A DNA stretch of 64,000 nucleotides from Thermoanaerobaculia bacterium. Lineage in GTDB: Bacteria; Acidobacteriota; Thermoanaerobaculia; Multivoradales; Multivoraceae. The DNA lies in NCBI GenBank assembly GCA_965116445.1, contig OZ220688.1, forward strand, positions 1,349,149 to 1,413,148, read 5' to 3'. Under the pieces are notes generated by a model. It saw nothing but the letters and a program-made list of their open reading frames with translations, did not search any database and was not told the DNA's origin. Positions 3,348 to 46,821 of this stretch are shown one piece after another. Positions within the stretch are counted from its first letter, which is position 1; the number at the start of each line of letters is the position of its first letter. The translations under genes were made by a program, and so were the position numbers.

Positions 3348-4130
3348 TTGTCTGACGCCGGCGCGGTCACTTCCGTCACGGTGTGCTTCGGTCGTGAGCC
3401 GGACGACGACAATCCGGACGTGGCGTTCATTCTTACGTTCTATCGCGATTCGGGCGGGAAGCCAGGCAGTCCATTGGCCGCCTACTCGGCGACGGTTCCC
3501 GGTTTGGCCAGAGGCCGGGGCACCTGTGGCCTGATCAACCGTGGCGACGTCACCTCACAGCAGCTCGATGGCGGCGATGTATGGCTGGGCGTTCAGTGGC
3601 CGAACTCGAGTGGCAAGGGTTTCGCCGAGGATCGCAACGGACCGGGCGGCACGAGGAACTTCTGGCGGTCCCGGTCCTCGTCGCAAGGCCCCTGGAGTTC
3701 ATGGAACGCCGAGACCGTAGCTACCGCGTACTTCATGCGCCTGAGCGTGGACCACGAGGCAACCACGCCTCCTCCGCCGGAGGACTGCACGCCGACGACG
3801 ACGCTGCTGCAGTTCGATGGAGGCTACGAGGTCAGCATGTGTTATCGCACCCCGGACGGGCAGGTGGGCCAGGCGAAGAGCGGCATCTGGGCTTCGGGCG
3901 AGTCCGGACTGTTGTGGTTCTTTGACCGCGACAACGCCGAAGTGTTGGTCAAGGTCCTCGATGGCTGCTCACACAACGGTTACCGTTGGGTCTTCGTCGC
4001 GCCCGTCACCACGCTGGAGTTCAACCTCCTGGTCAGGGCCCCGGACGGCACGAGGTGGGCGCATCGCAACGTGCAGGGGGTGACTGCGTCCGCCAGGAGC
4101 GATGATCGGGCGTTCAGGTGCTCGCCGTAG
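3348..4130 (+). CDS. Hypothetical protein (260 aa), start uncertain, directly abuts the IS end
   Basis: Open reading frame with coding periodicity and no recognisable motif. May be the remnant of a gene interrupted by the IS. Confidence 0.3.
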   Translation: MSDAGAVTSVTVCFGREPDDDNPDVAFILTFYRDSGGKPGSPLAAYSATVPGLARGRGTCGLINRGDVTSQQLDGGDVWLGVQWPNSSGKGFAEDRNGPGGTRNFWRSRSSSQGPWSSWNAETVATAYFMRLSVDHEATTPPPPEDCTPTTTLLQFDGGYEVSMCYRTPDGQVGQAKSGIWASGESGLLWFFDRDNAEVLVKVLDGCSHNGYRWVFVAPVTTLEFNLLVRAPDGTRWAHRNVQGVTASARSDDRAFRCSP

Positions 4131-4185
4131 CAGACCGTTTGTCAGCCTGCCAGATGTTTCGTTCAACCAGAAGGTCGAGGTCGTC

Positions 4186-5894
<1,709 letters not shown>

Positions 5895-7530: not shown

Positions 7531-8667
7531 GTGACTTCAGGGCGCACCATGGTCGCAGGCACAACGTCGACGATCCGACTGGCGGCCGGTCGCGGTCTCG
7601 CAGCCGCGTGCTGGCTCCTGCTCGTGCTGGGCGCAACGGCGGCTCACGCAGCCACGGTCCAGGATGTCCGGTCGAAGATGGGGTCACGCTTCGAGATCAC
7701 CGCCGTACACGATCAGGAGGCTGCGGCCCGCGAGGCGGTCGAGGCGGCGTGGGCCGAGATCGACCGGCTGGAGGCGATGATCTCGAGTTGGCGCGAGGAC
7801 TCCGAGACGTCGGCCGTCAATCGAAGCGCGGGGACCCGTCCGGTGCGGGTCTCGCCGGAGCTGTTCCGGCTGATCCGGCGGGCCGTCAAGGTCTCCGAGC
7901 TGACGGCGGGCGCCTTCGACATCACGTTCGCCGGTGTCGGCGACCTCTGGGACTTCAGGGCGGGCGAGCGCCAACCGGGGGCGCCGGCGTCCCCGCCGGC
8001 TGCGGCCGAAGGCGGCCAACAGAACGCGCCGGCCGCAAGGCCGGCGCCGGCGCTGCCGAGCGAGGAGCAGATCGCCGCCGCGCTCCAGCACGTCGGCTAC
8101 CGAAGGATCGTCCTGGACGAGGAGAAGGGAACCGTGTTCCTGAACGATCCGGGCGCCCGGATCGGGTTCGGGGCGATCGGCAAGGGCTATGCCGCGAACC
8201 GGGCCGTGTTCGTGCTCAAGGAGCACGGCGTCCGTGGCGGGTTGGTCAGCGCCGGCGGCGACCTGGTCGCCTTCGGCCAGCGCGAGGACGGCGAGCCGTG
8301 GAGCATCGGGGTCGCCCATCCCAGGGACCGGGAGCGGGTGCTGGCGCGGATACCGCTGACGGAACAGGCCGTCGTGACGTCAGGTGACTACGAGCAGTAC
8401 TTCATCCACGAGGGCCGGCGCTACTCGCACATCATCGATCCGCGCACCGGCTGGCCGGCCTCGGGGCTGCAGGCGGTCACGGTGATCTGCCCGGACGCGG
8501 AACTGGCAGACGCGCTGGCCACGGCGGCGTTCGTCCTCGGCCCTGAGGAGGGACTCGCGCTGGTCGAGCGCATGGAGCGCGTGGACGCCCTGTTCGTGAT
8601 CGAAACAGGGGAAGTCCGCTCAACGTCCAACATACGCAGGCATCTGAAGCAGGAGGATCGAGGATGA
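7531..8667 (+). CDS. apbE: FAD:protein FMN transferase (ApbE family), secreted or lipoprotein
   Basis: Signal peptide, then ApbE hallmarks: FDITFAGVGDLWDF, GFGAIGKGYAANRAV, VSAGGDL, TSGDYEQYF, HIIDPRTGWPA, PDAELADALATAAFVLG. Confidence 0.85.
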   Translation: MTSGRTMVAGTTSTIRLAAGRGLAAACWLLLVLGATAAHAATVQDVRSKMGSRFEITAVHDQEAAAREAVEAAWAEIDRLEAMISSWREDSETSAVNRSAGTRPVRVSPELFRLIRRAVKVSELTAGAFDITFAGVGDLWDFRAGERQPGAPASPPAAAEGGQQNAPAARPAPALPSEEQIAAALQHVGYRRIVLDEEKGTVFLNDPGARIGFGAIGKGYAANRAVFVLKEHGVRGGLVSAGGDLVAFGQREDGEPWSIGVAHPRDRERVLARIPLTEQAVVTSGDYEQYFIHEGRRYSHIIDPRTGWPASGLQAVTVICPDAELADALATAAFVLGPEEGLALVERMERVDALFVIETGEVRSTSNIRRHLKQEDRG

Positions 8668-8891: not shown

Positions 8892-10347
8892 GTCCGGAGC
8901 ATGCGCGGCAGAGACCGGGTGCGCCGGCCTGCCATCCGTGCGCCCGCCTGACGGGCGCACGGACTGGTTCACGGGTGACGCGAGTCGCGCCACCCGGGTT
9001 CTGGCCGGCATCCGGCGCGAAGCGCCGACTTCTGGACCTTCTGCCGCGCCAAGGGCCGCTTGCCGGCGGCCATCGCTGCTGCTCGCCGCCCTGGTGCTCG
9101 CCAGCGTTGGTGCCGGGGCCGGGGCGCAGCAGGCGCCTCAATCGCCGCGGGAAGCTGCGAGCGACGGCGACGGCCTCGCCGTCACCTTCCTGTTCAACTA
9201 CTACGACCAGGACGGCGACCGCTCGCCGGTGACCGGCGGCATCGGCACGGAGGACCTCCAGGTCGCCGCGCCCACCGTGCTGATCAACTGGCCGGTCAGC
9301 GAGAACTGGCGGTTCAACTTCGAGGTCGGAGCCGACAGCATCACCTCGGCGTCGACCAACAACATGGACGTCGACGGGCTCCAGAGCCCGGTTCTGCGGC
9401 GCGACGACGACGATGACCATGACGACGACTACGAAGACGACGACCACGATGATGGCGAGTACGACGAGTTCGACGGCACCTCCAGCGCGTCCCTGGTCGA
9501 TGTCCGCGGCTACCTGAACGCGACGGCCACGCGGTCCTTCGAGCGTTCCTCGGTTTCGCTCTTCACCGGCTTCTCGGCCGAGTGGGATTACCGCTCCGTG
9601 GCGTTCGGCGGCGCCTGGACCTATGACGTGGAGGAGGGTCTGCGCAGCTTTACCGTCGGCCTGAGGCACTTCTTCGACATCGTCGACCTGTACGAGATCG
9701 ACGGCGTGCAGCGCGGTCAGTCCGACCGGGACACGACGGATCTCTCGCTGTCGTTCACCAGCGTGCTCAGCCGGCGGGCGGTCGGCATAGTGGAGGTGTC
9801 GGCGATCGAGCAGTCGGGCTTCCTGTCGACGCCGTTTCACGAGGTCGTCTTCGCGCCCAGTGTTCCCTTCCCGCGGGGGGAAGTCGTCGCGGAGCGGCTG
9901 CCCGACAGCCGCCGCCGCTACTCCGTCGGCCTGGGGCTCAACCACATGATCTCCCGTGGCGTGGTCCAGCGGCCTCGGCTCCGCTGGTACGAGGACGACT
10001 GGAACCTGGAGGCACAGTCCTTCGACTACGAGGTCCACTTCCGGCTGCCGACCGAGCGCGAGATGTGGGCGTTCCCGATCTTCCGCTACCACACCCAGAG
10101 CGGGACCGACTACTACGGCCGGCCAGGGGACTTTTCCCGGGTCGACGACTTCTACACAGCCGACCCGGACCTGAGCGAGTTCGACCTCCTGAAGTACGGC
10201 TTCGGTATGCGCTTCCAGTTGCCCAGCGTCGTCGGCAGGCGCTTCGAGGACCTGGAAGTGCGACTCAACCGCTACGACCGCGACGACGGCTTCGAGGCGG
10301 TCACGATCTCCTTCGCGGTGGGCACCCGGTTCTGGGGAGACCGGTGA
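8857..10347 (+). CDS. DUF3570-like predicted outer-membrane beta-barrel protein with an acidic Asp/His-rich insertion
   Basis: Signal peptide LLLAALVLASVGAGAGA. Motifs LAVTFLFNYYDQDGDRSPVTGG and beta-strand-like alternating patterns. Insert RRDDDDDHDDDYEDDDHDDGEYDEFDG. The true start is probably downstream of 8857, because a REP-like hairpin lies at about 8920-9040. Confidence 0.6.
   Translation: MASRAAAVAAPESGACAAETGCAGLPSVRPPDGRTDWFTGDASRATRVLAGIRREAPTSGPSAAPRAACRRPSLLLAALVLASVGAGAGAQQAPQSPREAASDGDGLAVTFLFNYYDQDGDRSPVTGGIGTEDLQVAAPTVLINWPVSENWRFNFEVGADSITSASTNNMDVDGLQSPVLRRDDDDDHDDDYEDDDHDDGEYDEFDGTSSASLVDVRGYLNATATRSFERSSVSLFTGFSAEWDYRSVAFGGAWTYDVEEGLRSFTVGLRHFFDIVDLYEIDGVQRGQSDRDTTDLSLSFTSVLSRRAVGIVEVSAIEQSGFLSTPFHEVVFAPSVPFPRGEVVAERLPDSRRRYSVGLGLNHMISRGVVQRPRLRWYEDDWNLEAQSFDYEVHFRLPTEREMWAFPIFRYHTQSGTDYYGRPGDFSRVDDFYTADPDLSEFDLLKYGFGMRFQLPSVVGRRFEDLEVRLNRYDRDDGFEAVTISFAVGTRFWGDR
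8920..9040. repeat. Degenerate REP-like palindromic element (hairpin GTGCGCCCG-CCTGA-CGGGCGCAC)
   Basis: Seen in sequence. Related to the units at 26470-26590. Confidence 0.4.
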
Positions 10348-35327: not shown

Positions 35328-35789
35328 CTAGCCGGGTACACCTGCCTCACAAGGGCGCGCGAAGACGGTCTCGGACCGCCGCAGCGCGACGCGTCCGGGC
35401 GGCGCTCCGCGCGGCTTGCTGACATCACGGCCGCGGGCCAGGCGAACGGCCACCCGCCCGCCGGCCCGGGATTTCGAGTAGCGGGCCGCCAGGGCGGCCG
35501 CGAAGTCCCGCGTCGCCCGCGGCAGGCGGTCGACGCCGGAGTCGTTGAGCACCAGCACGTGAGACCCGGCGCCCGACGCCGCGTGCAGCCAGAAATCCGC
35601 GGGGCGGGCGAGCCGCAGGCTCAGATCGTCGTTGTCGGCGGCGGTCTTGCCGACCAGCACGATGAAGCCGTCCGGGGACTCGAACCGTCGCGCGACCGTC
35701 CGGCCGCGGAACAGCCCCTGGGCGGGCAGCGTCTCCTGTCCCGGCTCGCGCCGGTTCGCCTTTCCCCTGAGGGGCTGGCCGGAACTCAC
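35328..35789 (-). CDS. DUF814 / NFACT-R RNA-binding domain protein
   Basis: GFIVLVGKTAADNDDLSLRLARPADFWLHA matches the DUF814 (NFACT-R_1) core. 4-nt overlap with the upstream amidohydrolase. Confidence 0.55.
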   Translation of the reverse strand: MSSGQPLRGKANRREPGQETLPAQGLFRGRTVARRFESPDGFIVLVGKTAADNDDLSLRLARPADFWLHAASGAGSHVLVLNDSGVDRLPRATRDFAAALAARYSKSRAGGRVAVRLARGRDVSKPRGAPPGRVALRRSETVFARPCEAGVPG

Positions 35790-36916
35790 TCCGGGAACAG
35801 GCTCCGGTCGAGGCCCGGGATGATCTCAAGGGCGTTGCGGAAGTAGATCTTCTCGAGCACCTCATCGGACAGGCCGAGCCCGTACATCTTCCAGTGGGCG
35901 TGGCGCTTCCGGTAGTAGTCGAAGTACTCGTCCCGCGTCTCCAGCACGCGGAAGTAGACGTGGTAGCCCTCGATCGGATCCCAGGAGTCCTTGCCCATCA
36001 GGACGCGGTCCTGGTACTTCTCCATGAAGGCGGCGCCCGTGATCGGCTGCCTGCCGAGTTCGGCGAGGACCGCGCCGAGTTCCGTGTAGACGTTCGGCAG
36101 CTCGTCGAGCAGCTTGCCGAGTCGCGCCAGGTCGTTGCCGAGCCAGCCCAAGTGGGCGTTGATGAAGATCGTGTTCGGATGATTGCGGAACAGGTTGTGC
36201 TGCTCGCCCATCGTCTGCTCGAAGGAGGCAAAGCGCGTGGCGTCGTCGCGACGGCGTCTCGGGAACATCTTGAGTTCGAGCCAACGCTCGTTGTGCTCGT
36301 CCCACGGATCCCAGAACGGCGACGGTTCGCCAACGTGGATCAGGACCGGGATGCCCAACTCGCCCGCCTTCGCCCACACCGGATCGATCCGCGGGTCGTC
36401 GGCCGCCACCCGCTTGCCGTCGCTGTCGGTCTGGAACATGCTGAGGTTCTTGTAGATCTTGAGGCCCTGCGCGCCGGCCTGAACGTCCGCTTCGAGCTGC
36501 GACGCCGCCTTCTTGCCCCAGCCGGGTTGACCGATGCCGGAGAAGTCGACGTTCGCGTAGGCGACGAACCGGCCCGGGTAGCGGCCCTTGGTGGCGGCGA
36601 TGTTCGCCTTGAGGCCCTCGCCGCTGCCGCCGCTCAGGTTGACGAAGGTGGCCATGTTCAGCTCGTCCATCGTCTTGACCATCTGGTCGATCCGCGCCGC
36701 GTCGCCGCCGCGCAGGTGGCCGTGGGCGTCGACGAAGGGGAACTTCGCCCGCGTCACCGGGCCGCCCGGCACCTTGAGCGTCGAACGCGGCTCGTAGGCC
36801 TCGACGGTCATGTCCTGGCCGGCGGCCGGCAGCGGCGCGAGCAGCAGAGCGGCGACCAGGAACCAGCTCGGGTTATCGATGCGGATCGAAGCGTTCGAAC
36901 TATGTGTGACCGGCAT
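35786..36916 (-). CDS. Amidohydrolase-2 (metal-dependent TIM-barrel hydrolase) family protein, secreted
   Basis: Signal peptide. FVDAHGHL metal-binding start and conserved His/Asp positions typical of PF04909-type amidohydrolases. Confidence 0.6.
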   Translation of the reverse strand: MPVTHSSNASIRIDNPSWFLVAALLLAPLPAAGQDMTVEAYEPRSTLKVPGGPVTRAKFPFVDAHGHLRGGDAARIDQMVKTMDELNMATFVNLSGGSGEGLKANIAATKGRYPGRFVAYANVDFSGIGQPGWGKKAASQLEADVQAGAQGLKIYKNLSMFQTDSDGKRVAADDPRIDPVWAKAGELGIPVLIHVGEPSPFWDPWDEHNERWLELKMFPRRRRDDATRFASFEQTMGEQHNLFRNHPNTIFINAHLGWLGNDLARLGKLLDELPNVYTELGAVLAELGRQPITGAAFMEKYQDRVLMGKDSWDPIEGYHVYFRVLETRDEYFDYYRKRHAHWKMYGLGLSDEVLEKIYFRNALEIIPGLDRSLFPE

Positions 36917-36954
36917 GCTTTCTTCCTCAAGTCCCGGGTTGCCTCGTCGAAGGC

Positions 36955-37215
36955 GTCAGAGCGCTCGGAGTCTACGGCAGGACTCTTCAACCAGAGCCGG
37001 GAAAGGCGCCACGGGCTTGTATGGAACTGGCCGAATCACTGGGTGCGCCGACGTCCCCGTCGGCTTTCTGAGAGAAACGCGCGAGGCCGCAGGCCTAGCT
37101 CCTTCGTGCGGAGCCGGCCTGACGGCCGGGGCGTCTCTCCGGCTGCCTTCGGCAGCAGCCGGCGGGGACGCCGGCGCACCCAGTGGGCGGCCAGTTCCCT
37201 GCGCGTCGGCGCAGC
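36955..37215. repeat. Cluster of about 2-3 REP-like units (CACTGGGTGCGCCGACGTCCCCGTCGGCTTTCTGAGAGAAACGCGCGAGGCCGCAGGCC ... GCCGGCGGGGACGCCGGCGCACCCAGTG)
   Basis: Seen directly. Lies upstream of the 37300-44394 gene cluster. Confidence 0.8.
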
Positions 37216-37299
37216 GGAAGGCCGCAACCTGGCTGTTCCAGGCGAGTCAGCGCAGCGCACGCGCTGCTCTGACTGCTCGCCTGCGTATACTTCCACCCG

Positions 37300-37578
37300 A
37301 TGTCCATCGTGCGCGCCGCCGAGGTCGTCGTACTGCTCGGTGCCGTGTACGTCGCATGCGGACTCGTGTTCGCTCCGTTCTTCGTCTGGCGCGGCGTGGG
37401 CCGCGTCGACCCGGCCGCGAGGACAACCGGGCTCGGGTTCCGTCTGATCGTCCTTCCAGGCGTCGCCGCGCTGTGGCCGGTGCTGCTGCGGCGGTGGCTC
37501 GCCGGACGGCAGCCTCCGGCGGAGCGCAACGCGCACCGTGACGCGGCTGCCGGTCGAGGAAGGCGGGTAGACGGGTGA
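37300..37578 (+). CDS. Small 2-TM membrane protein (92 aa), first gene of the coupled operon
   Basis: Two hydrophobic helices. Stop overlaps the next start (GTGA). Confidence 0.45.
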   Translation: MSIVRAAEVVVLLGAVYVACGLVFAPFFVWRGVGRVDPAARTTGLGFRLIVLPGVAALWPVLLRRWLAGRQPPAERNAHRDAAAGRGRRVDG

Positions 37579-37766
37579 TCCGCGGTCTGCGAGGGCGCCA
37601 CCGCCTGATCTGGACCGTGCTGTTCCCGATCCTGGCGGTCCTGCTCGCCGCGGCGCTGCTATGGCGGCCCGCCCCCCCGCTCGCGGACAGCCTTCCGGAA
37701 GCGCGCGAGGTCGACGCTTCCCAAACCGGCGCCGACACCCCGGCACCGCGGGACGAGCCGCAGTGA
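37575..37766 (+). CDS. Small single-TM membrane protein (63 aa)
   Basis: GTG start inside GTGA overlaps on both sides. One TM helix. Confidence 0.4.
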   Translation: MIRGLRGRHRLIWTVLFPILAVLLAAALLWRPAPPLADSLPEAREVDASQTGADTPAPRDEPQ

Positions 37767-38902
37767 GCGCCGAGTACCAGGCCGTTCTTTGGAACCGCAA
37801 CAAGAAGCTCTACGACCTGGCCATCGCCACCGGAGTCGTGGTCTTCCTAGGTCTGTTCGTCGGCATCGGCATCGCAACCCGACCCCAGGCGACGATCGAG
37901 ACCCTGCTGATTCGCGGTTTCGGCGCCGGCGCCCTGCTGCTGCTCCACGTCGTGCTCGCCATCGGGCCGCTGTGCCGGCTGGACCGACGCTTCCTGCCCC
38001 TGCTCTACAACCGGCGCCACCTGGGTGTCTCCATGTTCCTGCTGGCTCTGGCTCACGGCGGATTCGCCGTCGTCCAGTTTCACGGCCTGGGCGTACTGAA
38101 CCCCCTGGTCAGCGTGCTGGCGAGCAACGGGAGATACGACAGCCTGTCGCAGTTCCCGTTTCAGGCGCTCGGCCTGCTGGCGCTCGCGATCCTCTTCCTG
38201 ATGGCGGCGACCTCGCACGACTTCTGGCTCGCGAACCTGACGGCGCCGGTCTGGAAGTCGCTCCACATGCTGGTCTACGCGGCCTACGGACTGATCCTCG
38301 TCCACGTGGCGCTGGGCAGCCTTCAGGCCGCCGAGCGACCGCCGATCCTCGCCGCCCTGCTGGGACTCGGATTCGCGTGCATCGCCTCGCTGCACCTGGT
38401 CGCCGGCTGGCGGGGCCGACTCTCGTCTCCGGAACGCGGCAGAGCGGCCAACGGGGACGATACGGCGAACGCGATGGACGCTGTCGACGTCTGCGCGGTC
38501 ACCGACATCCCGCTCGACCGCGCCCGCATCTTCCTGCTCGCCGGCGAACGCGTCGCCGTCTTCCGCTACCGGACGGACAAAGGCGAGTGGCTCGCCGCCG
38601 TCTCGAACGTCTGCCAGCACCAGAACGGGCCACTCGGCGAAGGCCGGGTCCTCGACGGCTGGATCACCTGCCCCTGGCACGGCTACCAGTACCGGCCCGA
38701 GGACGGCTGCTCGCCCCCGCCTTTCACCGAGAAGATCCCCACGTTCCACGTCCGCGTCGAGAACGGCCGGGTACTGGTCGATCCGCGGCCGAATCCGCCC
38801 GGTACGCGGGCGGAACCGGCGCGGGTCGCCGCTGCCGAAGGCCGGCTGGGTCGGCCTTCCAGCCGGCACTCCGGGGATCGCCGCCTCGGGGGTTCCTCGT
38901 GA
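37763..38902 (+). CDS. Ferric-reductase-like transmembrane (di-heme b) domain fused to a C-terminal Rieske [2Fe-2S] domain
   Basis: 6 TM helices with conserved His pairs (LLLLHVVLAIGP ... LALAHGGFAV ... LHMLVYAAYGLILVHV), then CQHQNGPLGEG ... CPWHGYQY (Rieske CxH...CxxH). GTGA overlaps at both ends. Confidence 0.6.
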   Translation: MSAEYQAVLWNRNKKLYDLAIATGVVVFLGLFVGIGIATRPQATIETLLIRGFGAGALLLLHVVLAIGPLCRLDRRFLPLLYNRRHLGVSMFLLALAHGGFAVVQFHGLGVLNPLVSVLASNGRYDSLSQFPFQALGLLALAILFLMAATSHDFWLANLTAPVWKSLHMLVYAAYGLILVHVALGSLQAAERPPILAALLGLGFACIASLHLVAGWRGRLSSPERGRAANGDDTANAMDAVDVCAVTDIPLDRARIFLLAGERVAVFRYRTDKGEWLAAVSNVCQHQNGPLGEGRVLDGWITCPWHGYQYRPEDGCSPPPFTEKIPTFHVRVENGRVLVDPRPNPPGTRAEPARVAAAEGRLGRPSSRHSGDRRLGGSS

Positions 38903-39897
38903 CCGGCGATCGCCAGGACGAACTGTACGTCGGCTACCTCGACGAGACGCCGCCCAGCGTGGCGCGGTTTGTGCGCCGTATCGCGATCGGCCTCCTGCTG
39001 CTGGCCGTGGTCCTGGGCGCCGGTCTTGCGCTGCTGCTCGAGCCGTTCGACGAAGGAGTGTTCGAGTACGGCACGGTGAGAGACTACGAGGGAGAACTGC
39101 TCGTCGATCCACATCCCCGGCTGCTCACGGCCGATGGACCGGCTCAGGGCTATCTGCTGGTTGGGGTCGGAAAGCACGGACTGGACGTGAATCTGGAGTC
39201 CAACCCGCCCTGGTCGCCCTCGCTCTCCTGGAGTACCGCGCTTTCGGGCTCGCTGATCGAGAACCGGGACGCGGCGATGCTCGAGGTCCACGTGCTCGAG
39301 CCTCCCGAGAGAACCGCCGTGGCTGGGCCCGCCGTCGAATCGGGCGCTCCAGCAAGTCCGGCAACCGACCGGGAGCGGCTCGACACCGAGGGCCCTCACC
39401 CTTCATCCGACGCGATCCCGGGGCCGCCGAACGCAGCAGCCAACGTCGTTCGCCTGCGCGGGCAGACCTTGCTGGGCGAAATCGTCGACACGAAGTGCTA
39501 TCTGGGCGCGATGAAGCCGGGCCGGGGCAAAGCCCACCGGGGCTGCGCCTCGCTCTGCATCAGCGGCGGCATTCCGGCCGCGCTCCTGGTCCGAACGGAA
39601 GACGGCAAGCGGGAACTGGTCCACCTCGTGGACCTCGGCGGCCGGCCATTGGGACGCGAGATCCTCGACTGGGTCGGCCAGCCGGTCGAAGTCACCGGCT
39701 TCCTGCATCGCCAGGACGACCGCCTCTTCCTGGCGACCGCCATATCCGACGGGAGCTCCGCGGCGACGACCATTCGCCCCTACCCCGCGGCCGAGTTCCC
39801 CGGCGCCGAGGCGGTCCTCGATCGACCCGGCCCGCCGAACGAACGCTCGCGCAAGTCCGGCAGCGGCGCCCCCGGACCGGAGGGGCGCCCAGGATGA
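38899..39897 (+). CDS. Membrane-anchored hypothetical protein (N-terminal TM, about 280-aa extracytoplasmic region)
   Basis: GTGA start overlap. Single TM IAIGLLLLAVVLGAGLALLL. C-terminal Cys pair CYLGAMKPGRGKAHRGCASLCISGG. No family recognised. Confidence 0.45.
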   Translation: MTGDRQDELYVGYLDETPPSVARFVRRIAIGLLLLAVVLGAGLALLLEPFDEGVFEYGTVRDYEGELLVDPHPRLLTADGPAQGYLLVGVGKHGLDVNLESNPPWSPSLSWSTALSGSLIENRDAAMLEVHVLEPPERTAVAGPAVESGAPASPATDRERLDTEGPHPSSDAIPGPPNAAANVVRLRGQTLLGEIVDTKCYLGAMKPGRGKAHRGCASLCISGGIPAALLVRTEDGKRELVHLVDLGGRPLGREILDWVGQPVEVTGFLHRQDDRLFLATAISDGSSAATTIRPYPAAEFPGAEAVLDRPGPPNERSRKSGSGAPGPEGRPG

Positions 39898-40745
39898 ACG
39901 CCAGGGTCGTGAACGCAAGTCCCTCAGAGGGCGGCATCGACCGAAGTGGCGGCCCGATTCCCAGCCCCGAACTCCTGCCCGACGGCCAGATCGAGGTCGG
40001 CAGCTATCGGCTCCGGTTTGCACGCACGGCGGCCGACATCGACCGGCTGCTGGCGCTGCGCTTCGAGGTCTTCAACCTGGAACTCGGCGAGGGCCTTACG
40101 GAGTCCTTCGCCACCGGCCGCGACACGGATCGTTTCGACGCGAGCTGCCACCACATGCTGGTCGAGGAAGAGAACGGCCAGCTCATCGGCACCTACCGCA
40201 TGCAGACGGCGGCCATGGCCGCGCGCGGTCATGGCTTCTACTCGGCCGGCGAGTACGAACTGGACGCCATACCCGGAAGCGTCCTCGATCAGTCGGTCGA
40301 GATCGGCCGCGCCTGCATCCACCGCGAACACCGCAAGCGCACGGTGCTGTTCCTGCTCTGGAAGGGCCTGGCCCGGTACCTCGTCCACAACCGCTGCCGC
40401 TACCTGTTCGGCTGCTGCTCCCTGACCAGCCAGGATCAGGCGGCCGGCATCCGGCTCTACCGGCAACTCAATGCGGCCGGCAAGGTGATGACCGACCTCG
40501 ACGTGCCTCCCCTGCCCCACACCCGCTGCGAGGCGACCGACGATCAGGTAGCCGCAATCCCCGACATCAAGGTGCCGCCGCTCTTCGCCACCTATCTCCG
40601 CTACGGCACCCTGGTGTGCAGCCGCCCGGCGATCGACCGGGAGTTCAAGACGATCGACTACCTGGTCCTGATGGACACGGCCGCGTTGAGCCGGCGCACG
40701 CGGTTGATCTTCGGGCTCAACGAAGCGCCGGCGGCGGCGCTCTAG
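39894..40745 (+). CDS. olsB: OlsB/GlsB-family N-acyltransferase (GNAT Acetyltransf_5; lyso-aminolipid / N-acyl amino acid synthase)
   Basis: ATGA overlap with the upstream gene. SYRLRFARTAADIDRLLALRFEVFNLELGEG and GTYRMQT ... RKRTVLFLLWKGLARYL are hallmarks of OlsB-like hemolysin-type N-acyltransferases. Confidence 0.7.
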   Translation: MNARVVNASPSEGGIDRSGGPIPSPELLPDGQIEVGSYRLRFARTAADIDRLLALRFEVFNLELGEGLTESFATGRDTDRFDASCHHMLVEEENGQLIGTYRMQTAAMAARGHGFYSAGEYELDAIPGSVLDQSVEIGRACIHREHRKRTVLFLLWKGLARYLVHNRCRYLFGCCSLTSQDQAAGIRLYRQLNAAGKVMTDLDVPPLPHTRCEATDDQVAAIPDIKVPPLFATYLRYGTLVCSRPAIDREFKTIDYLVLMDTAALSRRTRLIFGLNEAPAAAL

Positions 40746-40794
40746 CTCCGGCACACGACTTGCTTCGCGGCGTTCTTCGGCGCAAGCTCCCGGG

Positions 40795-41661
40795 ATGCAG
40801 CCGAGAACCAGCAACCCCCCGCTGCTTGGGCCCCTCCGGCTCTGGCGGTTGATCTGGCGGGCGCCGGCTCTGCTGGTCGCGGCCCTGACCGCCTGGCTCC
40901 CGCTGCTCGTTCTGCGACCCCTCCTGGCACGACCGGCGCCCCGATCCTGGCGAGCCGTCCTCCGCACCGTGCTCCGGTGCTGGGGACGCACAAGTCTCGC
41001 GATCCTCGGCTGCAGGGTGACCGTACGCGGCAAGGCGCCCAAGAGTCCCTTCCTGCTCATCTCGAACCACATCTCATACCTCGACATTCTTCTGCTTTCG
41101 GCCTTCACGCCCGGCCTCTTCGTGTCCAAGGCGGAGATTCGGAGCTGGCCGGTGGCCGGCGCCATGTGCCGGACGGTAGGCATCATCTTCGTCGACCGCC
41201 GCCGGCGCCGGGACGTGACGCGCGTCGGCGAGCAGATCGCCGCAGCGCTCGCGGACGGCGACTCCGTGATCCTGTTCCCCGAAGGGACGTCGACACCCGG
41301 CCGAGAGGTGACGCCACTCAAGCCGTCCCTGCTGGCGCCGGCCGCCGGGCAGGAGCTCGCCGTGCACTGGGCCGTCATCCGCTACCGGACGCCGCCCGAC
41401 GAGACGCCCGCCTTCCTGAGCGTTGCCTGGTGGGGAGAGATGCCCATGGTGCCCCACGCCCCCGACCTGCTCAGGCTCCGGCGCATCGACGCGGAAATCG
41501 AGTTCGGCGAAGAGCCGGTGCGGTGCGCCGACCGCAAGGAGCTCGCCCGCCTCCTGCGCGAGCGGATGGCGGACCGGTTCCGGCCGATGGTCTCGAGCGA
41601 GGAACTCGCGGCCATCGGCGACCTCCACGGCCCCGTCGGGATTCCCGAACGCCGCGACTGA
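40795..41661 (+). CDS. olsA: OlsA/PlsC-family lysolipid O-acyltransferase (LPLAT)
   Basis: ISNHISYLD (HX4D), FPEGTS motif and N-terminal TM. Immediately downstream of the olsB-like gene, as in olsBA / glsBA pairs. Confidence 0.7.
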   Translation: MQPRTSNPPLLGPLRLWRLIWRAPALLVAALTAWLPLLVLRPLLARPAPRSWRAVLRTVLRCWGRTSLAILGCRVTVRGKAPKSPFLLISNHISYLDILLLSAFTPGLFVSKAEIRSWPVAGAMCRTVGIIFVDRRRRRDVTRVGEQIAAALADGDSVILFPEGTSTPGREVTPLKPSLLAPAAGQELAVHWAVIRYRTPPDETPAFLSVAWWGEMPMVPHAPDLLRLRRIDAEIEFGEEPVRCADRKELARLLRERMADRFRPMVSSEELAAIGDLHGPVGIPERRD

Positions 41662-41721
41662 CGGGGCGCGGATGCGGCAGCCATCGCACGACGAACCGGC
41701 GGTCCGCCGCATGGTCGAACG

Positions 41722-44394
41722 GTGACGAGAGACGATCGACTGCGGCCGCAACGGGCGACCTGGTGGAAGATCGCGACCGCGGTCTACCTCGTCCTGCTGC
41801 TGGGCTCGACGCTGACGCGCATCGTCGCCGAACCGGATCCGCTGCCCCGGGGCCGGGAGACGACGGAAATCGACTCGTCGGCAACCGCTGACCGACCAGT
41901 CCGCATGGCGTGGCGGGAGTGGGGCGAGCCGGTCGCCGCCGACGCCCCGGGCGAAGACGCCCTGCCGCTCGTCCTCCTCCACGGATCGCCAGGCAGCGCC
42001 GACGACTTCCGGCGCCTGGCGCCCCACCTGGCTTCAGGGCGCCGCATCATCGCTCCCGACCTCCCTGGATTCGGCGCCTCCGAGCAGCGGGTGAACGACT
42101 ACTCGATCCGCGCCCATGCCGAGGCGACCCTCGCCCTGCTCGACGAACTCGGCGTGGGGCGTTTCCACGTCCTCGGCTTCAGCATGGGCGGCGGCCCCGC
42201 CCTGCACCTGGCGGACAACGCTTCGGACCGCGTCGCGTCCGTGGTGCTCGTCGCCTCGGTCGGCGTTCAGGAGCTCGAACTGCTCGGCAACTACACGGTG
42301 AACCACGGCCTGCACGGTTTGCAGCTCGGCCTGATCCGGGGCCTGCGCAACCTGGTCCCCCACTTCGGCGCCTTCGATCAGCCGATCGCCCACTCCTACG
42401 CCCGCAACTTCTACGACACGGACCAGCGGCCTCTGCGCGGCATCCTCAAGACCCTGGAAGCGCCGGTCTTCATCGTCCACGGCGAGCAGGATCCGCTCGT
42501 GCCGGCCGCCGCGGCGCTGGAGCACCACCGGATCGTGCCTCACAGCGAGCTGTGGATGCGGCCGGACAGCCACTTCTTCCTGTTTCGCGGCGGCGGGGAC
42601 CTCGCGTCCCGGATCGACGGGTTCCTGGAACGCGTCGAAGCCGGCGAAGCGCCGACCCTGGCCTTTGCCACGCCGGAGCGGCTGCGCCGGGCGGCGATGC
42701 CGTTCGACGACATGGACCTGCCGCCGTTTGCCGGGCCGGCCCTGCTGATCGTCTTCCTGCTCCTCGTGTTCGCCGCGTACCTGAGCGAGGATCTGACCTG
42801 CATCACGGCGGGCCTGCTGATCGCACAAGGGCGCCTCGACTTCCCGGTCGGCGTGGCGGCCTGCTACCTCGGCATCCTGAGCAGCGACCTGGGCCTCGCC
42901 TGGCTGGCGCGCGTTCTGGGCCGGCCCGCGCTCAGGCTGCCGCCCTTCAAGTGGTGGGTCAGCGAAGCGGCCGTCGAGGAGGCTTCGGCATGGCTGCGGC
43001 GCCGGGCGCTCGTCGTCGTCCTGGTCAGCCGCTTCCTGCCCGGCACGCGCCTGCCGACCTGCCTCGCCGCCGGCATCCTGCGCACCAGCCTGCTCCGGTT
43101 CTGCTTCTACTTCGGCGTCGCCGTGGCGATCTGGACGCCCGCCTTCGTCGGTCTGAACGTGCTGCTGGGCCGCGAGGCCGTCGAGCGCTTCGGCGGCCGT
43201 CTGCCCGGCGGCCTGCTGGCGGCAGTGCTGGCGCTGGGGCTCGTGATCCTCAGCGTCCGCACCTTCGTCCTGCCGCTCTTCACTTGGCGCGGGCGTCGGC
43301 TGCTGCGCGGCCGGCTGCTCCGCATCCGGCACTGGGAGTTCTGGCCCATGTGGGTGTTCTACCCGCCGCTCGTGCTCTACATCCTGTGGCTCGGTCTCCG
43401 GCGCGGCAGCCTCGCGGCGTTCACCGCGGTCAATCCGGCGATGCCGCTGGGCGGCCTGCAGGGCGAGTCGAAGAGCGACATTCTGGACGGCCTGGCCGGA
43501 ATCGGCGAGGCGTTACCGGCATGGACGCGCCTGCCGCCGGGGAAGCCTGAGGGTTTGCCGACGAGGAACGCACTGCCTTTACCAACGGAGAACCTGGCGA
43601 CACGGGTCGCGGCCCTGCAGCGGTTCCTGCGGGACGAGGATCTGGACTACCCGGTCGTCCTCAAGCCGGACACCGGCGAGCGGGGACGCGGTATCGCCGT
43701 GGCGCACTCGGAAGCCGAAGCGATCGCGTTCTTCGAGGCGACTCCCGGACCGGCGCTCGTGCAGGAGTACGTGGCAGGCGAAGAGTACGGCGTGTTCTGG
43801 GCCCGCCACCAGGGCCGACGTGACGGGCAGGTCTTCTCGATCACGCACAAGGTGCGGCCGACCGTGACGGGCGACGGCGCCAGCACCCTGGAACGGTTGA
43901 TCCTCGAGGACCGGCGAGCGGTAGCCATCGCGCACCTCTACCGGCGGGAACACCCCCAGGCCGCGAAGCGCGTACCCGAAGCCGGCGAAGTCGTCGAACT
44001 GACCGAGGTCGGCGCGCACTCCCGCGGCACGATCTTCCTGGACGCGAACGATCTCCACACCCCGGAACTGGAACGGGCGATCAACACGATCAGCACTGCC
44101 TACGCAGGCTTCGACTTCGGCCGCTTCGACATACGCGTCCCGACCGCCAAGGCGCTCCAGCGTGGCGAGGGAATCCGGGTGCTCGAAGCGAACGGCGTGA
44201 CCTCGGAAGCGACCCACATGTACGACCGCCGCTACGGCTTCTTCGCCGCCCACGCGATCCTGCGCCGGCAGTGGCGGAAGGCCTTCGACCTCGCCGACGA
44301 GCGCATCCGTGCGGGCGCCCGGCCCGCGAGTGTGAGCGAAGTCCTCCGCGCCATTCGGGCCGAACGACGAGCCAGGAACGAAGGGCCGCACTGA
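41722..44394 (+). CDS. 890-aa tri-domain fusion: alpha/beta-hydrolase + DedA/SNARE-associated membrane domain + ATP-grasp ligase (RimK/Ddl-like)
   Basis: N-terminus: LVLLHGSPGSADDF ... LGFSMGG ... HGEQD ... H (Ser-Asp-His triad). Middle: LTCITAGLLIAQGRLDF ... VSRFLPGTRLPTCLAAGIL (DedA) plus extra TMs. C-terminus: YPVVLKPDTGERGRGIAV ... LVQEYVAGEEYGV ... FGRFDIRV ... RVLEANGVTSEATHMYD (ATP-grasp). Confidence 0.65.
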   Translation: MTRDDRLRPQRATWWKIATAVYLVLLLGSTLTRIVAEPDPLPRGRETTEIDSSATADRPVRMAWREWGEPVAADAPGEDALPLVLLHGSPGSADDFRRLAPHLASGRRIIAPDLPGFGASEQRVNDYSIRAHAEATLALLDELGVGRFHVLGFSMGGGPALHLADNASDRVASVVLVASVGVQELELLGNYTVNHGLHGLQLGLIRGLRNLVPHFGAFDQPIAHSYARNFYDTDQRPLRGILKTLEAPVFIVHGEQDPLVPAAAALEHHRIVPHSELWMRPDSHFFLFRGGGDLASRIDGFLERVEAGEAPTLAFATPERLRRAAMPFDDMDLPPFAGPALLIVFLLLVFAAYLSEDLTCITAGLLIAQGRLDFPVGVAACYLGILSSDLGLAWLARVLGRPALRLPPFKWWVSEAAVEEASAWLRRRALVVVLVSRFLPGTRLPTCLAAGILRTSLLRFCFYFGVAVAIWTPAFVGLNVLLGREAVERFGGRLPGGLLAAVLALGLVILSVRTFVLPLFTWRGRRLLRGRLLRIRHWEFWPMWVFYPPLVLYILWLGLRRGSLAAFTAVNPAMPLGGLQGESKSDILDGLAGIGEALPAWTRLPPGKPEGLPTRNALPLPTENLATRVAALQRFLRDEDLDYPVVLKPDTGERGRGIAVAHSEAEAIAFFEATPGPALVQEYVAGEEYGVFWARHQGRRDGQVFSITHKVRPTVTGDGASTLERLILEDRRAVAIAHLYRREHPQAAKRVPEAGEVVELTEVGAHSRGTIFLDANDLHTPELERAINTISTAYAGFDFGRFDIRVPTAKALQRGEGIRVLEANGVTSEATHMYDRRYGFFAAHAILRRQWRKAFDLADERIRAGARPASVSEVLRAIRAERRARNEGPH

Positions 44395-44402
44395 CCCGAG
44401 CG

Positions 44403-44972
44403 TCAGGTCCTGCGCGCTTCGACTTCTTCCATGACAGAAGGCACCGTCTTCTCGCTCGGACCGCTGTCGATGCCCTCTTGTACGGCAGTTCGAAGGGACT
44501 CCAAGTCGCCCGCTCGCGGCTCCAGTTCTTCCAGCGCCTCGAGCCGGGCTTCGATCGCGCTCAGCTTCTCGACCACCGCGTCCAGGTCCGCTTTGCCGGG
44601 AACGCCGAGCTTCTCGAGCCGGCGCTCCAGGTGTTCGTCGAGTCCCGTCCGCGCCTTGGCCTTGGTCTGCTCGAAGCCGCTCCGCGCCTTCGACTTGGTC
44701 TGCTCGAGCCCTTTCTCGGCCGCGGAACGCACCTGCTTGACCTTGACTTCCGCCTTGTCCCGCCAACCGCTCAGGGACTCCCGGCCCTGGCTCTCGACCT
44801 TCTCGCCGCGCGCAACCAGCCGGTCAAAGACCTTGGATCCGGCGTCGACCGCCTCGCCCGCCACGCCTGCGCCGGCAAGCGCCACCTTGTGGGCCGCTTC
44901 GACGGCCGAGTCGACCACCGACCGCGCCTTCAAATCGCTATCCCTGGTTTCTGCCGCGGATGCTGCTGTCAT
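44403..44972 (-). CDS. Phasin-like / coiled-coil granule-associated protein (189 aa)
   Basis: RBS GGGGAG before the ATG at 44972. Highly helical, Ala/Glu/Lys-rich with repeated KARSGFEQTKAKART segments resembling PHA phasins. The longer track ORF is rejected. Confidence 0.45.
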   Translation of the reverse strand: MTAASAAETRDSDLKARSVVDSAVEAAHKVALAGAGVAGEAVDAGSKVFDRLVARGEKVESQGRESLSGWRDKAEVKVKQVRSAAEKGLEQTKSKARSGFEQTKAKARTGLDEHLERRLEKLGVPGKADLDAVVEKLSAIEARLEALEELEPRAGDLESLRTAVQEGIDSGPSEKTVPSVMEEVEARRT

Positions 44973-45046
44973 CTCGTTTCTCCCCTCTATGTCTGTTGGG
45001 GCTTCCGACACAGCGGACCGCGATTCCTCCAGGAACTGTGGGCCCG

Positions 45047-45826
45047 CTAGGAACTGTGGGCTTCGGCGAGTCGCCGCTTCACTGTCTCGAGGGGGTTGCG
45101 GTAGTCCACCGTGCCAAGACCCTTGTTGGTCAGCTTGTAACCGATCAACTCCTGCAGCTTCTCCGGCATCTCCACGACGACGTCCCACGGCACGCCGACG
45201 TACTGGTTCTCGCGCTGCTTGAGCCACGCCAGGTTGAAGTTGAAGTTGATGGAGCGCCGATAGCCGCTGTCCGTCGAGTTCCCTCCGCCACGGTGCCAGA
45301 CGGCGCCGTCCCAGAGGAACAGGGCCCCGGCCGGCATCTCCACCGTCAACGTGGGCACGTCCGGATCGACCGGATCGGCCGAGCGATGGCTGCCGGGAAC
45401 GATCTCCGTTGCCCCGTTCTCGGCCGTGAACGGATCGAGTGCGATCAGCGTGTTGGCGATCAGGGGGAAGTGCGGGCGCGCAAGCGGGTAGTGGCCGTCG
45501 TCCTGGTGCATCCGCTGGCGACGGTCCCCCGGCCCCGGCCGCATCGCGGCGACGCCGGAGACCTGATAGTCCGGGCCGAGCACCGCCTCGACGAGCCCCA
45601 GCAGACCATCGTCCATCAGCAGTTCGTCGACGGCCCGCGTCTTGGCGAGCAGGTTGTGCGTGTGGATCGTCTGCTGACCGTAGTCGTCCGTCAGCCGGCT
45701 GCCGATTTCCTCGAACACGGGGTCGAGACCCCGCTTCAGCCGTTCCAGCCTCTCCTCGCCGAGGAAATCGGGCACCACCGTGTAGCCGTCTTCGCGAACC
45801 TGCCGTGCTGATCTCTCGATGTCCAT
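45047..45826 (-). CDS. Phytanoyl-CoA dioxygenase (PhyH) family Fe(II)/2-oxoglutarate oxygenase
   Basis: HQDDGHY ... (HxD), GATEIVPGSH, LFLWDGAVWHRGG typical of the PhyH family. Confidence 0.75.
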   Translation of the reverse strand: MDIERSARQVREDGYTVVPDFLGEERLERLKRGLDPVFEEIGSRLTDDYGQQTIHTHNLLAKTRAVDELLMDDGLLGLVEAVLGPDYQVSGVAAMRPGPGDRRQRMHQDDGHYPLARPHFPLIANTLIALDPFTAENGATEIVPGSHRSADPVDPDVPTLTVEMPAGALFLWDGAVWHRGGGNSTDSGYRRSINFNFNLAWLKQRENQYVGVPWDVVVEMPEKLQELIGYKLTNKGLGTVDYRNPLETVKRRLAEAHSS

Positions 45827-45894
45827 AACTTCCCGTGACCAGTGATCGGATTGACGTTTCGCGGGAGCGTACCAAAGGGAGTAGCCTTCACTCC

Positions 45895-46800
45895 ATGAGA
45901 AGAGATACGGCGTATCGCCGACCGATGTTCCGCGCCGTCCTGGCGACGCTGATCGCGTTCGTCGCCTTCACCGGCGTCTACGCGCAAAGTGACGCCTCTA
46001 CCGAGTCCTTCACGGCGAGCGACGGCGCCGTCATTCACTACCTGGTCGAAGGGCGCGGCGACCCCGTCGTGCTCCTCCACGGCATCACCGGCACGGCCGC
46101 CTCGAACTGGGGCGCCGCCGGCATCATCGACCGGCTGGCCGAGGAGTTCCAGGTCATCGCCGTCGACCAGCGCGGCCACGGCAAGAGCGACAAGCCGCAC
46201 GACCCGGACAGCTACGGCGAGCGCATGGCGCTGGATGTCGTCGATCTGCTGGATCACCTGAGGCTGCAGCAGGCGAACGTCGTCGGCTACTCGATGGGCG
46301 GCTTCATCACGATGAAGCTCATCGCCCTCGCGCCCGACCGGCTGCTCTCGGCAGTCGTCGGCGGCGCCGGCTGGTCCAGCCCCGACCTGCGCGACGACGC
46401 CATGTTCGACGCCCTGGCGGTTTCGCTCGAGGCGGGCAAGGGCGGCGGTCCCCTGGTCGAGTTCCTGTGGCCCGGCGAGGAACCGCCTGGCCCCGAGCAG
46501 GTTCAGGCCATCGGCCTGGCGATGGTTGCCTCGAACGACCAGGCGGCCCTGGCAGCCGTCGTCCGCGGCATGCCCGCCCTCGACGTGAGCGCCGAGCTCC
46601 TCCGCATCAACAAGGTGCCGACCCTCAACATCATCGGCAGCAACGATCCCCTGAAGCCCAACGCTGACGCCCTCGTCTCTGTCATGCAGGAGCACCGCCT
46701 CCACGTGATCGAAGGCGCGAACCACATGAACACCCTGAACTCCCCCGAGTTCTACGACACGATCCGCGCCTTCTTCATCGAACTCTGCAACTGCGCCTGA
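45895..46800 (+). CDS. Alpha/beta-hydrolase fold protein, secreted
   Basis: Signal peptide. VVLLHGITGT ... VGYSMGGF (GxSxG) ... AVDQRGHGKSD. Start ambiguous (45835, 45895 or 45925). Confidence 0.65.
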   Translation: MRRDTAYRRPMFRAVLATLIAFVAFTGVYAQSDASTESFTASDGAVIHYLVEGRGDPVVLLHGITGTAASNWGAAGIIDRLAEEFQVIAVDQRGHGKSDKPHDPDSYGERMALDVVDLLDHLRLQQANVVGYSMGGFITMKLIALAPDRLLSAVVGGAGWSSPDLRDDAMFDALAVSLEAGKGGGPLVEFLWPGEEPPGPEQVQAIGLAMVASNDQAALAAVVRGMPALDVSAELLRINKVPTLNIIGSNDPLKPNADALVSVMQEHRLHVIEGANHMNTLNSPEFYDTIRAFFIELCNCA

Positions 46801-46821
46801 CGACGCAGGCAAGTTCGTCGG

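Follow-up and report, generated by a model that had tools for sequence, protein, structure and literature searches.

When phosphate is limiting or cells are stressed, amino-acid lipids take the place of phospholipids, and host immune receptors sense some of them. In the OlsB/OlsA pathway of Sinorhizobium meliloti, and in its GluB/OlsA (glutamine lipid) and GlsB/GlsA (glycine lipid) variants, adjacent genes encode an Acetyltransf_5-type GNAT and a PlsC-type acyltransferase with an HX4D motif. A 2026 review recognizes three ornithine-lipid pathways (OlsBA, OlsF and OlsHI) and five modifications, none of which involves an ATP-grasp enzyme, a DedA protein or a protein with a ferric reductase domain (FRD); it also records that ATP-dependent transfer of taurine to the carboxylate of ornithine lipid is known biochemically, its enzyme being still unidentified (PMC12971839). 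The enzyme for the serine-adding step of flavolipin synthesis is likewise unidentified (PMC10191378). In this report, we analyzed a stretch of 64,000 nucleotides of contig OZ220688.1 from a Thermoanaerobaculia bacterium (“the window”) and found that seven + strand open reading frames (ORFs) at 37300-44394, here called g1-g7, make up an aminolipid gene cluster extended by uncharacterized, conserved partners. Around its OlsB/OlsA-like pair, g5 and g6, stand five further genes, apparently linked to the pair by translational coupling, that all described aminolipid pathways lack (PMC12971839). A preliminary description of this DNA had supposed that no described aminolipid pathway has such a composition, in agreement with the review, and our literature searches for OlsB with ATP-grasp and DedA, for TANGO2 with DinB and ATP-grasp, and for similar combinations returned no account of this cluster.

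We tentatively propose that g1-g7 form one co-expressed, conserved cluster whose products make and handle, in the inner membrane, a modified amino-acid lipid, a reading that we hold to be plausible rather than established. The products of g5 and g6 would make an acyloxyacyl aminolipid; that of g7 would ligate an amine to the free carboxylate of this lipid in an ATP-dependent reaction and translocate the result. The end product would probably be a modified amino-acid lipid as yet undescribed.

The cluster is bounded by opposite-strand genes at 35786-36916 (upstream) and from 44403 onward (downstream). Its first five genes overlap by 4 nt, at GTGA for g1/g2 (37575), g2/g3 (37763) and g3/g4 (38899) and at ATGA for g4/g5 (39894); g5 and g6 are separated by 49 nt, and g6 and g7 by 60 nt. 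Both the co-directional, overlapping arrangement and the two short gaps are as the preliminary description had reported them. All seven ORFs have a strong GC bias at third codon positions (GC3 0.81-0.89, compared with GC2 0.46-0.57) and are thus typical of real genes in a window whose GC content is about 69%. Homologs support the starts of g2 (MIRGLRGRHR here, MIRPLRQRHR at distant loci), g3 (conservation from residue 5 on) and g4 (an N-terminus alignable with 32 homologs). Further, the 4-nt overlaps are conserved among homologous loci: g1/g2 in 15 of 15, g2/g3 in 14 of 15, g3/g4 in 59 of 95 and g4/g5 in 13 of 32. The overlaps are therefore not a matter of chance, and we infer that g1-g7 are co-transcribed and co-translated. 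A scan of 36800-44600 found no sigma-70-like promoter or intrinsic terminator, a result that is uninformative for this phylum, though compatible with a single transcription unit. The seven genes fall into three evolutionary modules: g1-g4 (transmembrane electron transfer), g5-g6 (aminolipid N- and O-acyltransferases) and g7.

The g5 gene (39894..40745, + strand) encodes an apparent N-acyltransferase of the OlsB family. Its product matches Acetyltransf_5 (PF13444) with 101.6 bits against a cut-off of 22.4, and its best NCBIfam matches are two OlsB models, whose alignment covers residues 37-273 of 283. It is 28% identical over its full length (E 1e-30) to an S. meliloti GNAT whose gene lies between a sensor kinase and malic enzyme/mutS; judging by this gene order, that gene is probably olsB. 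A match to the FeeM family of N-acyl amino acid synthases falls below its cut-off (23.5 against 27 bits), and a sequence search of the Protein Data Bank with g5 yielded no solved relative. The neighboring g6 (40795..41661, + strand) encodes an OlsA-like O-acyltransferase of the PlsC family (Acyltransferase PF01553, 73.7 bits); in the translation, its HX4D motif (NHISYLD) is intact and an FPEGT block is present. Its best matches are OlsA models, and it is 32% identical to the OlsA-like partner of an OlsB-like protein of Kitasatospora; g5 and g6 share 32-37% identity with such actinobacterial pairs. What sets the two proteins apart from established OlsB and OlsA is their scores, which reach about a third of the values required of an equivalog (125 bits versus 320-350 for OlsB, 143 versus 300 for OlsA). 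On these sequence grounds, they belong to the OlsB and OlsA families without being demonstrable equivalogs, and ornithine specificity consequently cannot be assumed for them.

The most distinctive member of the cluster is g7, a predicted protein of 890 amino acids with an AlphaFold2 model of high confidence (predicted local distance difference test score 88.6). Its N-terminal part (41722..42726, + strand) comprises a transmembrane (TM) helix at residues 17-35 and an α/β-hydrolase domain at residues ~45-306 (Abhydrolase_1 PF00561, 115 bits). The residues Ser154, within a GFSMGG nucleophile elbow, Asp257 and His284 are invariant in 46 sequences, and the domain is thus predicted to be catalytically intact. 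A Foldseek search with the whole model retrieved esterases and aryl esterases at E~1e-13; these generic esterases dominated the results, and nothing was retrieved for the other domains. OlsI of the OlsHI pathway provides a precedent for an α/β-hydrolase that acts as an acyltransferase in aminolipid synthesis (PMC12971839). We considered whether the hydrolase domain might replace OlsA, and found no support for this, given that g6 and the domain are often both present or both absent. The middle part (42727..43278, + strand; residues ~336-519) is a DedA/VTT membrane domain (VTT_dom PF09335, 43.2 bits against a cut-off of 33.9) whose helices agree with those of the AlphaFold2 model. It scores 47 bits with the UptA model, for which the cut-off is 250, and hence is not an UptA equivalog.

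The C-terminal part of g7 (43285..44394, + strand; residues ~520-890) contains, in order, an arginine-rich helix, the hydrophobic juxtamembrane helix “WEFWP”, a segment with the pattern NPxxxxGGxxGESK and the core of an ATP-grasp ligase. A profile built from 28 of these ATP-grasp sequences, compared with the Protein Data Bank, matched cyanophycin synthetase 2 (7ta5) first, with E 2.8e-8, followed by cyanophycin synthetase, GshAB, D-Ala-D-Ala ligase (Ddl) and RimK. With the GshAB glutathione synthetase domain, the G domain of cyanophycin synthetase and Ddl, g7 shares a central and C-terminal ATP-grasp core, the conserved ATP-binding lysine (K648) and the Mg2+ ligands of the E-x-N motif (E822 and N824), all three of which are invariant in the 46 sequences. 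In those enzymes, a C-terminal carboxylate is converted to an acyl phosphate, and an amino acid is then added. Unlike them, the g7-type ligase has a DedA membrane domain as fusion partner or neighbor, and its identity to them is about 24% over roughly half of the domain (for GshAB, 24.5% over 53%). For this domain, all curated Pfam and NCBIfam models stay below their cut-offs: the Pfam RimK model gives 20.2 bits against 21 with the single sequence, and the model for cyanophycin synthetase gives 43.5 where 850 is required, which speaks against that specific function. The N-terminal pre-ATP-grasp substrate domain usual in such ligases is replaced by the hydrophobic juxtamembrane segment and the elements around it, and this replacement is kept in standalone forms of the ligase too. 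A membrane-embedded carboxylate substrate would fit this arrangement. Judged by sequence, the g7 ligase is a member of the ATP-grasp superfamily that forms its own uncharacterized family. Inclusive of the membrane helix, this family numbers 986 representative clusters (at 50% identity) at E<=1e-30, with three architectures or length classes (~350-430, 520-600 and 850-900 amino acids); the clusters of standalone ligases are named only “hypothetical” or “DedA”.

The first four genes look like a transmembrane electron conduit in which electrons would pass from a cytoplasmic Rieske center, via b hemes, to a periplasmic Cys3-His protein. At its heart is g3 (37763..38902, + strand), with a six-helix ferric-reductase-type TM domain (~37817-38401; Ferric_reduct PF01794, 48 bits against a cut-off of 28) and a C-terminal Rieske [2Fe-2S] domain (~38483-38779; Rieske PF00355, 53.1 bits against 20.3). 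Six TM segments are predicted. Among 71 sequences, H86, H98, H107, H152, H168, H181 and H211 are at least 95% conserved; H86/H98 and H168/H181 constitute the two histidine pairs, some 12-14 residues apart in TM3 and TM5, that typify the FRD superfamily. The Rieske ligands C284-x-H286 and C303-x-x-H306 are conserved to the same degree, so that the CxH...CxxH motif is intact. Thus, g3 is a predicted heme-b ferric-reductase-type domain fused to a Rieske domain, an architecture that was catalogued, without a function, in a 2013 survey (PMC3591440). With these assignments, every domain call of the preliminary description holds in profile and hidden-Markov-model searches: the FRD::Rieske fusion, the OlsB-like GNAT at 39894-40745, the OlsA-like PlsC protein and the α/β-hydrolase::DedA::ATP-grasp fusion.

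The partner of g3 is g4 (38899..39897, + strand), which has a cytoplasmic N-terminal FYVGY motif, one TM helix and two barrels resembling the oligonucleotide/oligosaccharide-binding (OB) fold, with a variable linker between them. The second barrel harbors the invariant residues C200, H213, C216 and C220 (GEIVDxKC...HxxCAxxCIxGGIP). Searches with g4 found neither MsrP nor any Pfam domain, and by its sequence it represents a new protein family, one that combines OB-like barrels and a Cys3-His site. A Tat signal-anchor, suggested by an RR pair before the TM helix, was dropped as a candidate feature, as the pair is not conserved in distant homologs. Like MsrQ (YedZ), NOX and STEAP, g3 has a six-helix heme-b FRD that would carry electrons across the membrane, in this case to an extracytoplasmic partner encoded next to it. 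It gives weak matches to the MsrQ and NirD models. Membership in the MsrPQ system is rejected, since the MsrQ model scores 35.3 against a cut-off of 130 and the molybdoenzyme MsrP is missing; in contrast to MsrPQ, g3 has a fused Rieske domain as its cytoplasmic donor, and its partner consists of OB-like barrels with a Cys3-His site.

The two remaining genes of this module are small. The product of g1 (37300..37578, + strand) is a 92-residue membrane protein with two hydrophobic helices (TM 9-27 and 45-63) and without a Pfam or NCBIfam match; conserved in 63 sequences are Y17, G21, F24, F28, G32, D37, G46, F47, R48, P53, W59, P60 and R65, and g1 is always accompanied by g3 and g4 in the loci compared. 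The product of g2 (37575..37766, + strand) is a 63-residue single-pass protein (TM 11-29), also without a Pfam or NCBIfam match. Essentially all loci have an ORF with one strong TM helix between g1 and g3, with a conserved N-terminal MIRxLRxRHR motif. By this comparison, g2 is a truncated form of a component that is 155-230 residues long in many loci, where it carries an additional predicted extracytoplasmic domain; the long form likewise has no Pfam match. Together, g1-g4 constitute a newly defined four-gene module for transmembrane electron transfer that is widespread in soil metagenomes. A gene for an extracytoplasmic-function (ECF) sigma factor neighbors g1-g4 in about 17 loci, often divergent from g1, which suggests control by envelope or oxidative stress. 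Such loci include L133 (9789-10831), L129 (2395-3824), L068, L106, L111, L113, L147, L132, L149, L155 and L158. A separate observation concerns locus L102, where a 148-residue ORF (3894-4340, - strand) lies ~4.7 kb upstream of a g1-g4 module (g4 at 9001). Its similarity to the g7 hydrolase domain is confined to the C-terminal half of that domain, and the ORF is probably a pseudogene or a piece of a gene.

The conservation of the cluster in other genomes is central to the argument that its modules belong together. The closest relatives of g7 (72-83% identity) are in metagenome-assembled genomes labeled Candidatus Multivorans/Thermoanaerobaculia (Acidobacteriota), and g1-g7 are all present, in the same order, in 12 of 12 close relatives. 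A further comparison took in 48 distant loci in which g7 is 41-50% identical and the sequence upstream of it extends for at least 6 kb; Acidobacteriota, Gemmatimonadota, Planctomycetota, Myxococcota and Rhodothermia are among their sources. There, g5 is near g7 in 39 loci, g6 in 31, and g3 plus g4 in 19. An independent metagenome scan anchored on g4 found g3 upstream in all 42 loci with enough sequence, usually with g1, and a g7-type ATP-grasp gene within 9 kb in 11 of 15 long loci, despite differences in gene order, strand and fusion state. In these loci, g7 is split, either into separate DoxX, DinB, DedA, NRDE and ATP-grasp genes or into a form with a DedA::ATP-grasp fusion, and g5 is often on the opposite strand; DedA is a gene of its own in L136, L137 and L144 as well as in Salinivibrio and Paracoccus. 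The modules co-occur in Acidobacteriota, Gemmatimonadota, Myxococcota, Rhodothermia, Planctomycetota and Betaproteobacteria. Because their linkage has been retained through fission, fusion and rearrangement, a functional association among the modules is strongly supported, and the neighborhood that the preliminary description had put forward as a unit is indeed kept as one in close relatives.

These comparisons also revealed what the preliminary description had missed, namely that what is present in the window is a pared-down form of a more extensive conserved set. Elsewhere, this set includes DinB, NRDE/TANGO2 and DoxX proteins. A DinB_2 protein (~180 amino acids) is encoded between g6 and g7 in 30 of the 48 distant loci and an NRDE/TANGO2 protein (~250 amino acids, beginning with MC) in 19, so that most relatives outside Multivorans have them in this position; a DoxX protein is often encoded nearby. 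Examples of the DinB_2 and NRDE/TANGO2 genes are found in L013 (8716-9255 and 9243-9962), L062 (8692-9962), L167 (8177-9414) and about 40 other loci. A tblastn search of the whole window found no homologs of DinB, NRDE or DoxX.

Homologs in cultured bacteria display the parts of g7 in several combinations. On plasmid 1 of Paracoccus denitrificans PD1222 (L164, 7920-10611), a standalone ATP-grasp protein (annotated as hypothetical), an α/β-hydrolase and a VTT/DedA protein are encoded by neighboring genes; the hydrolase is 30% identical to the N-terminal domain of g7, and its lack of a signal peptide hints at a cytoplasmic location. The locus tags are PDEN_RS24485 for the ATP-grasp protein, PDEN_RS25810 for the hydrolase and PDEN_RS24475 for DedA. 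Azospirillum has a DedA::ATP-grasp fusion, and Salinivibrio (Vibrionaceae) has the order DedA-ATP-grasp-DinB-NRDE. In Variovorax sp. PDNC026 (L165, NZ_CP070344.1, 3803-8908), the genes encode HupE/UreJ_2, a heme-oxygenase-like “iron-containing redox enzyme” (PF14518), a standalone g7-type ATP-grasp protein and, directly after it, an OlsB-like GNAT, so that a different redox partner stands beside the same ligase/acyltransferase pair. Finally, plasmid pGX5 of Komagataeibacter xylinus E25 (L166, 6926-8011) encodes a standalone g7-type ATP-grasp protein annotated as D-alanine--D-alanine ligase; this copy is on conjugative plasmids of acetic acid bacteria, beside transposases and an ABC transporter. 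Such homologs in tractable bacteria (P. denitrificans PD1222, Azospirillum, Variovorax and Vibrionaceae) make the proposed function testable.

How might the cluster work? By analogy with OlsBA, g5 would transfer a 3-hydroxyacyl chain to the α-amino group of some amino acid, and g6 would add a second acyl chain by esterification. The ATP-grasp domain of g7, at the cytoplasmic surface of the membrane, would phosphorylate the free α-carboxylate of the lipid headgroup and join an amine to it, either another amino acid or an amine resembling taurine, yielding a dipeptide-type or amidated aminolipid. This predicted chemistry, amide formation on the carboxylate of an aminolipid, is that of taurine transfer in the synthesis of cerilipin (Gluconobacter cerinus) and of serine addition in that of flavolipin, a Ser-Gly lipid. 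The DedA domain may shift the lipid or lysolipid between leaflets, and the hydrolase domain may remove or transfer an ester-linked acyl chain. In pairing a headgroup-modifying enzyme with a lipid translocator, g7 would resemble MprF, a flippase joined to an aminoacyl-phosphatidylglycerol synthase; it differs from MprF in having no sequence relationship to it and in drawing energy, by our prediction, from ATP rather than from aminoacyl-tRNA. The g1-g4 module would pass electrons from its Rieske center via the hemes to the Cys3-His site of g4, and might thereby either modify the exported lipid or serve envelope redox/stress defense under the same regulation.

Several facts weigh against this proposal. 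The g5 protein scores 124.8 and 124.6 bits with the two OlsB models, for which the equivalog cut-offs are 350 and 320, and g6 scores 142.7 and 132.3 bits with the OlsA models, for which the cut-off is 300. In 9 of the 48 distant loci, g7 has no g5 nearby, and in Salinivibrio, Paracoccus and Azospirillum the DedA/ATP-grasp unit, with or without DinB and NRDE, has no adjacent OlsB gene; the ligase may thus have another substrate. The proposal also gives no account of DinB, NRDE/TANGO2 and DoxX, the usual companions of the ligase that the window lacks. The membrane side of the hydrolase domain is in dispute, as the positive-inside rule and the parity of the DedA helices give conflicting answers. 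As for the redox module, g4 has an OB-like fold and not an enzyme-like one, and in L133 and L129, where genes for an ECF sigma factor and a zf-HC2 anti-sigma factor stand beside g1-g4, the lipid and ligase genes are absent. For these last two reasons, redox derivatization of the lipid by g1-g4 is the weakest link. The preliminary description had suggested the synthesis, redox modification, ATP-dependent ligation and translocation of a novel aminolipid; its structural statements stand, and the function must be qualified by the low scores of g5 and g6, the g7-type modules of Vibrionaceae, Paracoccus and Azospirillum, the fold of g4 and the solitary occurrences of g1-g4, with the redox step the least secure.

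The strongest competing explanation, less likely in our view though one to be taken seriously, is that the g7-type unit (DedA and ATP-grasp, with or without the hydrolase, DinB, NRDE/TANGO2 and DoxX) and g1-g4 together constitute an envelope redox/stress system. The ligase would then make or recycle a small peptide-like or thiol-type compound, or would modify a membrane substrate other than an aminolipid, such as a phospholipid or a polyprenyl-phosphate-linked intermediate; the OlsB/OlsA-like genes would merely be co-regulated stress partners. The Salinivibrio, Paracoccus and Azospirillum units without a neighboring OlsB gene are consistent with this scenario, as are the ranking of glutathione synthetase domains (GshAB) among the nearest characterized ligases and the recurrence of partners from the DinB, DoxX and NRDE families. 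The DinB and DoxX families are often linked to thiol chemistry. The ECF sigma genes beside g1-g4 in the ~17 loci (with a zf-HC2 anti-sigma gene in some) and a g4 with a Cys3-His site and no enzyme fold point the same way. However, OlsB-like genes adjoin the ligase gene in 39 of the 48 distant loci and in Variovorax, a pattern too frequent and too widespread for mere co-regulation, and the membrane anchor and DedA partner of the ligase point to a lipid substrate. Further, g5-g7 are tightly linked in the window even though DinB, NRDE and DoxX are missing from it.

Another possibility, which we consider quite improbable, is that the product of the cluster is a lipo-amino-acid or lipopeptide that is secreted or located at the surface, such as a surfactant, a signal or a metal-binding amphiphile. 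Here, g5 would be an N-acyl amino acid synthase, the ATP-grasp domain would extend the peptide, the hydrolase would release or remodel the product, DedA would export it, and g1-g4 would be a ferric or cupric reductase for its metal-loaded form. The sub-threshold resemblance of g5 to the FeeM family, the placement of g3 in the ferric-reductase superfamily and the possible metal site in g4 would accord with such a role, and so would the location of the Variovorax ATP-grasp/OlsB-like pair beside HupE/UreJ, a metal-transport family, and a heme-oxygenase-like iron enzyme. Yet the OlsA-type partner g6, which is found in 31 of the 48 loci, typically goes with acyloxyacyl lipids that form bilayers rather than with N-acyl amino acids that are secreted; no transporter, non-ribosomal peptide synthetase or TonB-type genes are among the genes of the cluster; and the link to metals is conjecture.

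A chance juxtaposition of the seven genes, in which an ordinary ornithine-lipid olsBA pair happens to be flanked by unrelated membrane proteins, is strongly disfavored and hardly credible: the modules are separable (g1-g4 are alone in L133 and L151, and g7 is without g1-g4 in 29 of the 48 distant loci) and genes outside 37300-44394 are syntenic in close relatives only, but the run from g1 to g5, which crosses a module boundary, is held together by four conserved 4-nt overlaps, and the modules are found together in six named lineages, from Acidobacteriota to Betaproteobacteria, despite rearrangement and gene fission and fusion. A role in anti-phage defense was also considered and rejected, as a PADLOC scan gave no match for any of the seven proteins.

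If the aminolipid proposal is taken a step further, the membrane-anchored ATP-grasp enzyme with its DedA partner could be the founding member of a large, phylum-spanning family of peptide ligases for lipid headgroups, which would convert OlsB-type lipids to dipeptide, amidated or taurine-type aminolipids and supply the enzyme type for lipids like cerilipin and flavolipin, while g1-g4 would act on the exported headgroup at the periplasmic face, either modifying it by redox chemistry or maintaining it in a reduced state. We regard this extension as unlikely; if true, it would describe a lipid-anchored, redox-active headgroup system. To our knowledge, the ATP-dependent addition of taurine to ornithine lipid and the addition of serine in flavolipin synthesis have been without an assigned gene for decades. 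The cluster nominates for such headgroup-extension chemistry a concrete enzyme family, one that is tied physically and evolutionarily to OlsB/OlsA-type genes and a DedA transporter and that is abundant in soil Acidobacteriota, Gemmatimonadota and Planctomycetota. The only connection between this family and the organisms that make cerilipin or flavolipin is the set of plasmid-borne standalone homologs in Komagataeibacter; that genus is related to Gluconobacter, the cerilipin producer, and the connection is a lead only.

The surroundings of the cluster deserve brief mention. PAE-like, amidohydrolase, phasin-like, PhyH, α/β-hydrolase and M20 genes that flank it were considered as members and rejected, their synteny being confined to close relatives. 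Named from a reading of their translations alone, the downstream genes at 44403-48003 encode a phasin-like protein (- strand), a PhyH-type dioxygenase (45047-45826, - strand), a secreted-looking α/β-hydrolase (45835-46800, + strand) and an M20 amidohydrolase (46822-48003, - strand). Upstream, the 383 nt between the divergent gene at 35786-36916 (- strand) and g1 (36917..37299, + strand) are the presumed promoter region, in which an Rfam scan gave no match; one copy of the repeat described next, at 37164, falls within it. The window contains six copies, at no more than 3 mismatches, of the 25-nt GC-rich repeat GGGGACGCCGGCGCACCCAGTGGGC, compared with 0 expected; they lie at 7970(-), 25701(+), 29056(-), 35247(-), 37164(+) and 55250(-), and a partial inverted copy is near 37037-37060. 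This repeat looks like an intergenic palindromic element of the repetitive extragenic palindromic (REP) kind, and two exact copies of it lie on either side of the divergent genes that immediately precede the cluster. Finally, the ORF listing includes a + strand ORF at 46909-48957 whose C-terminal part (48100-48957) has a highly repetitive stretch rich in Glu, Arg and Lys, ERKRKAEERKRKAEE, followed by what is possibly a nuclease-like domain.

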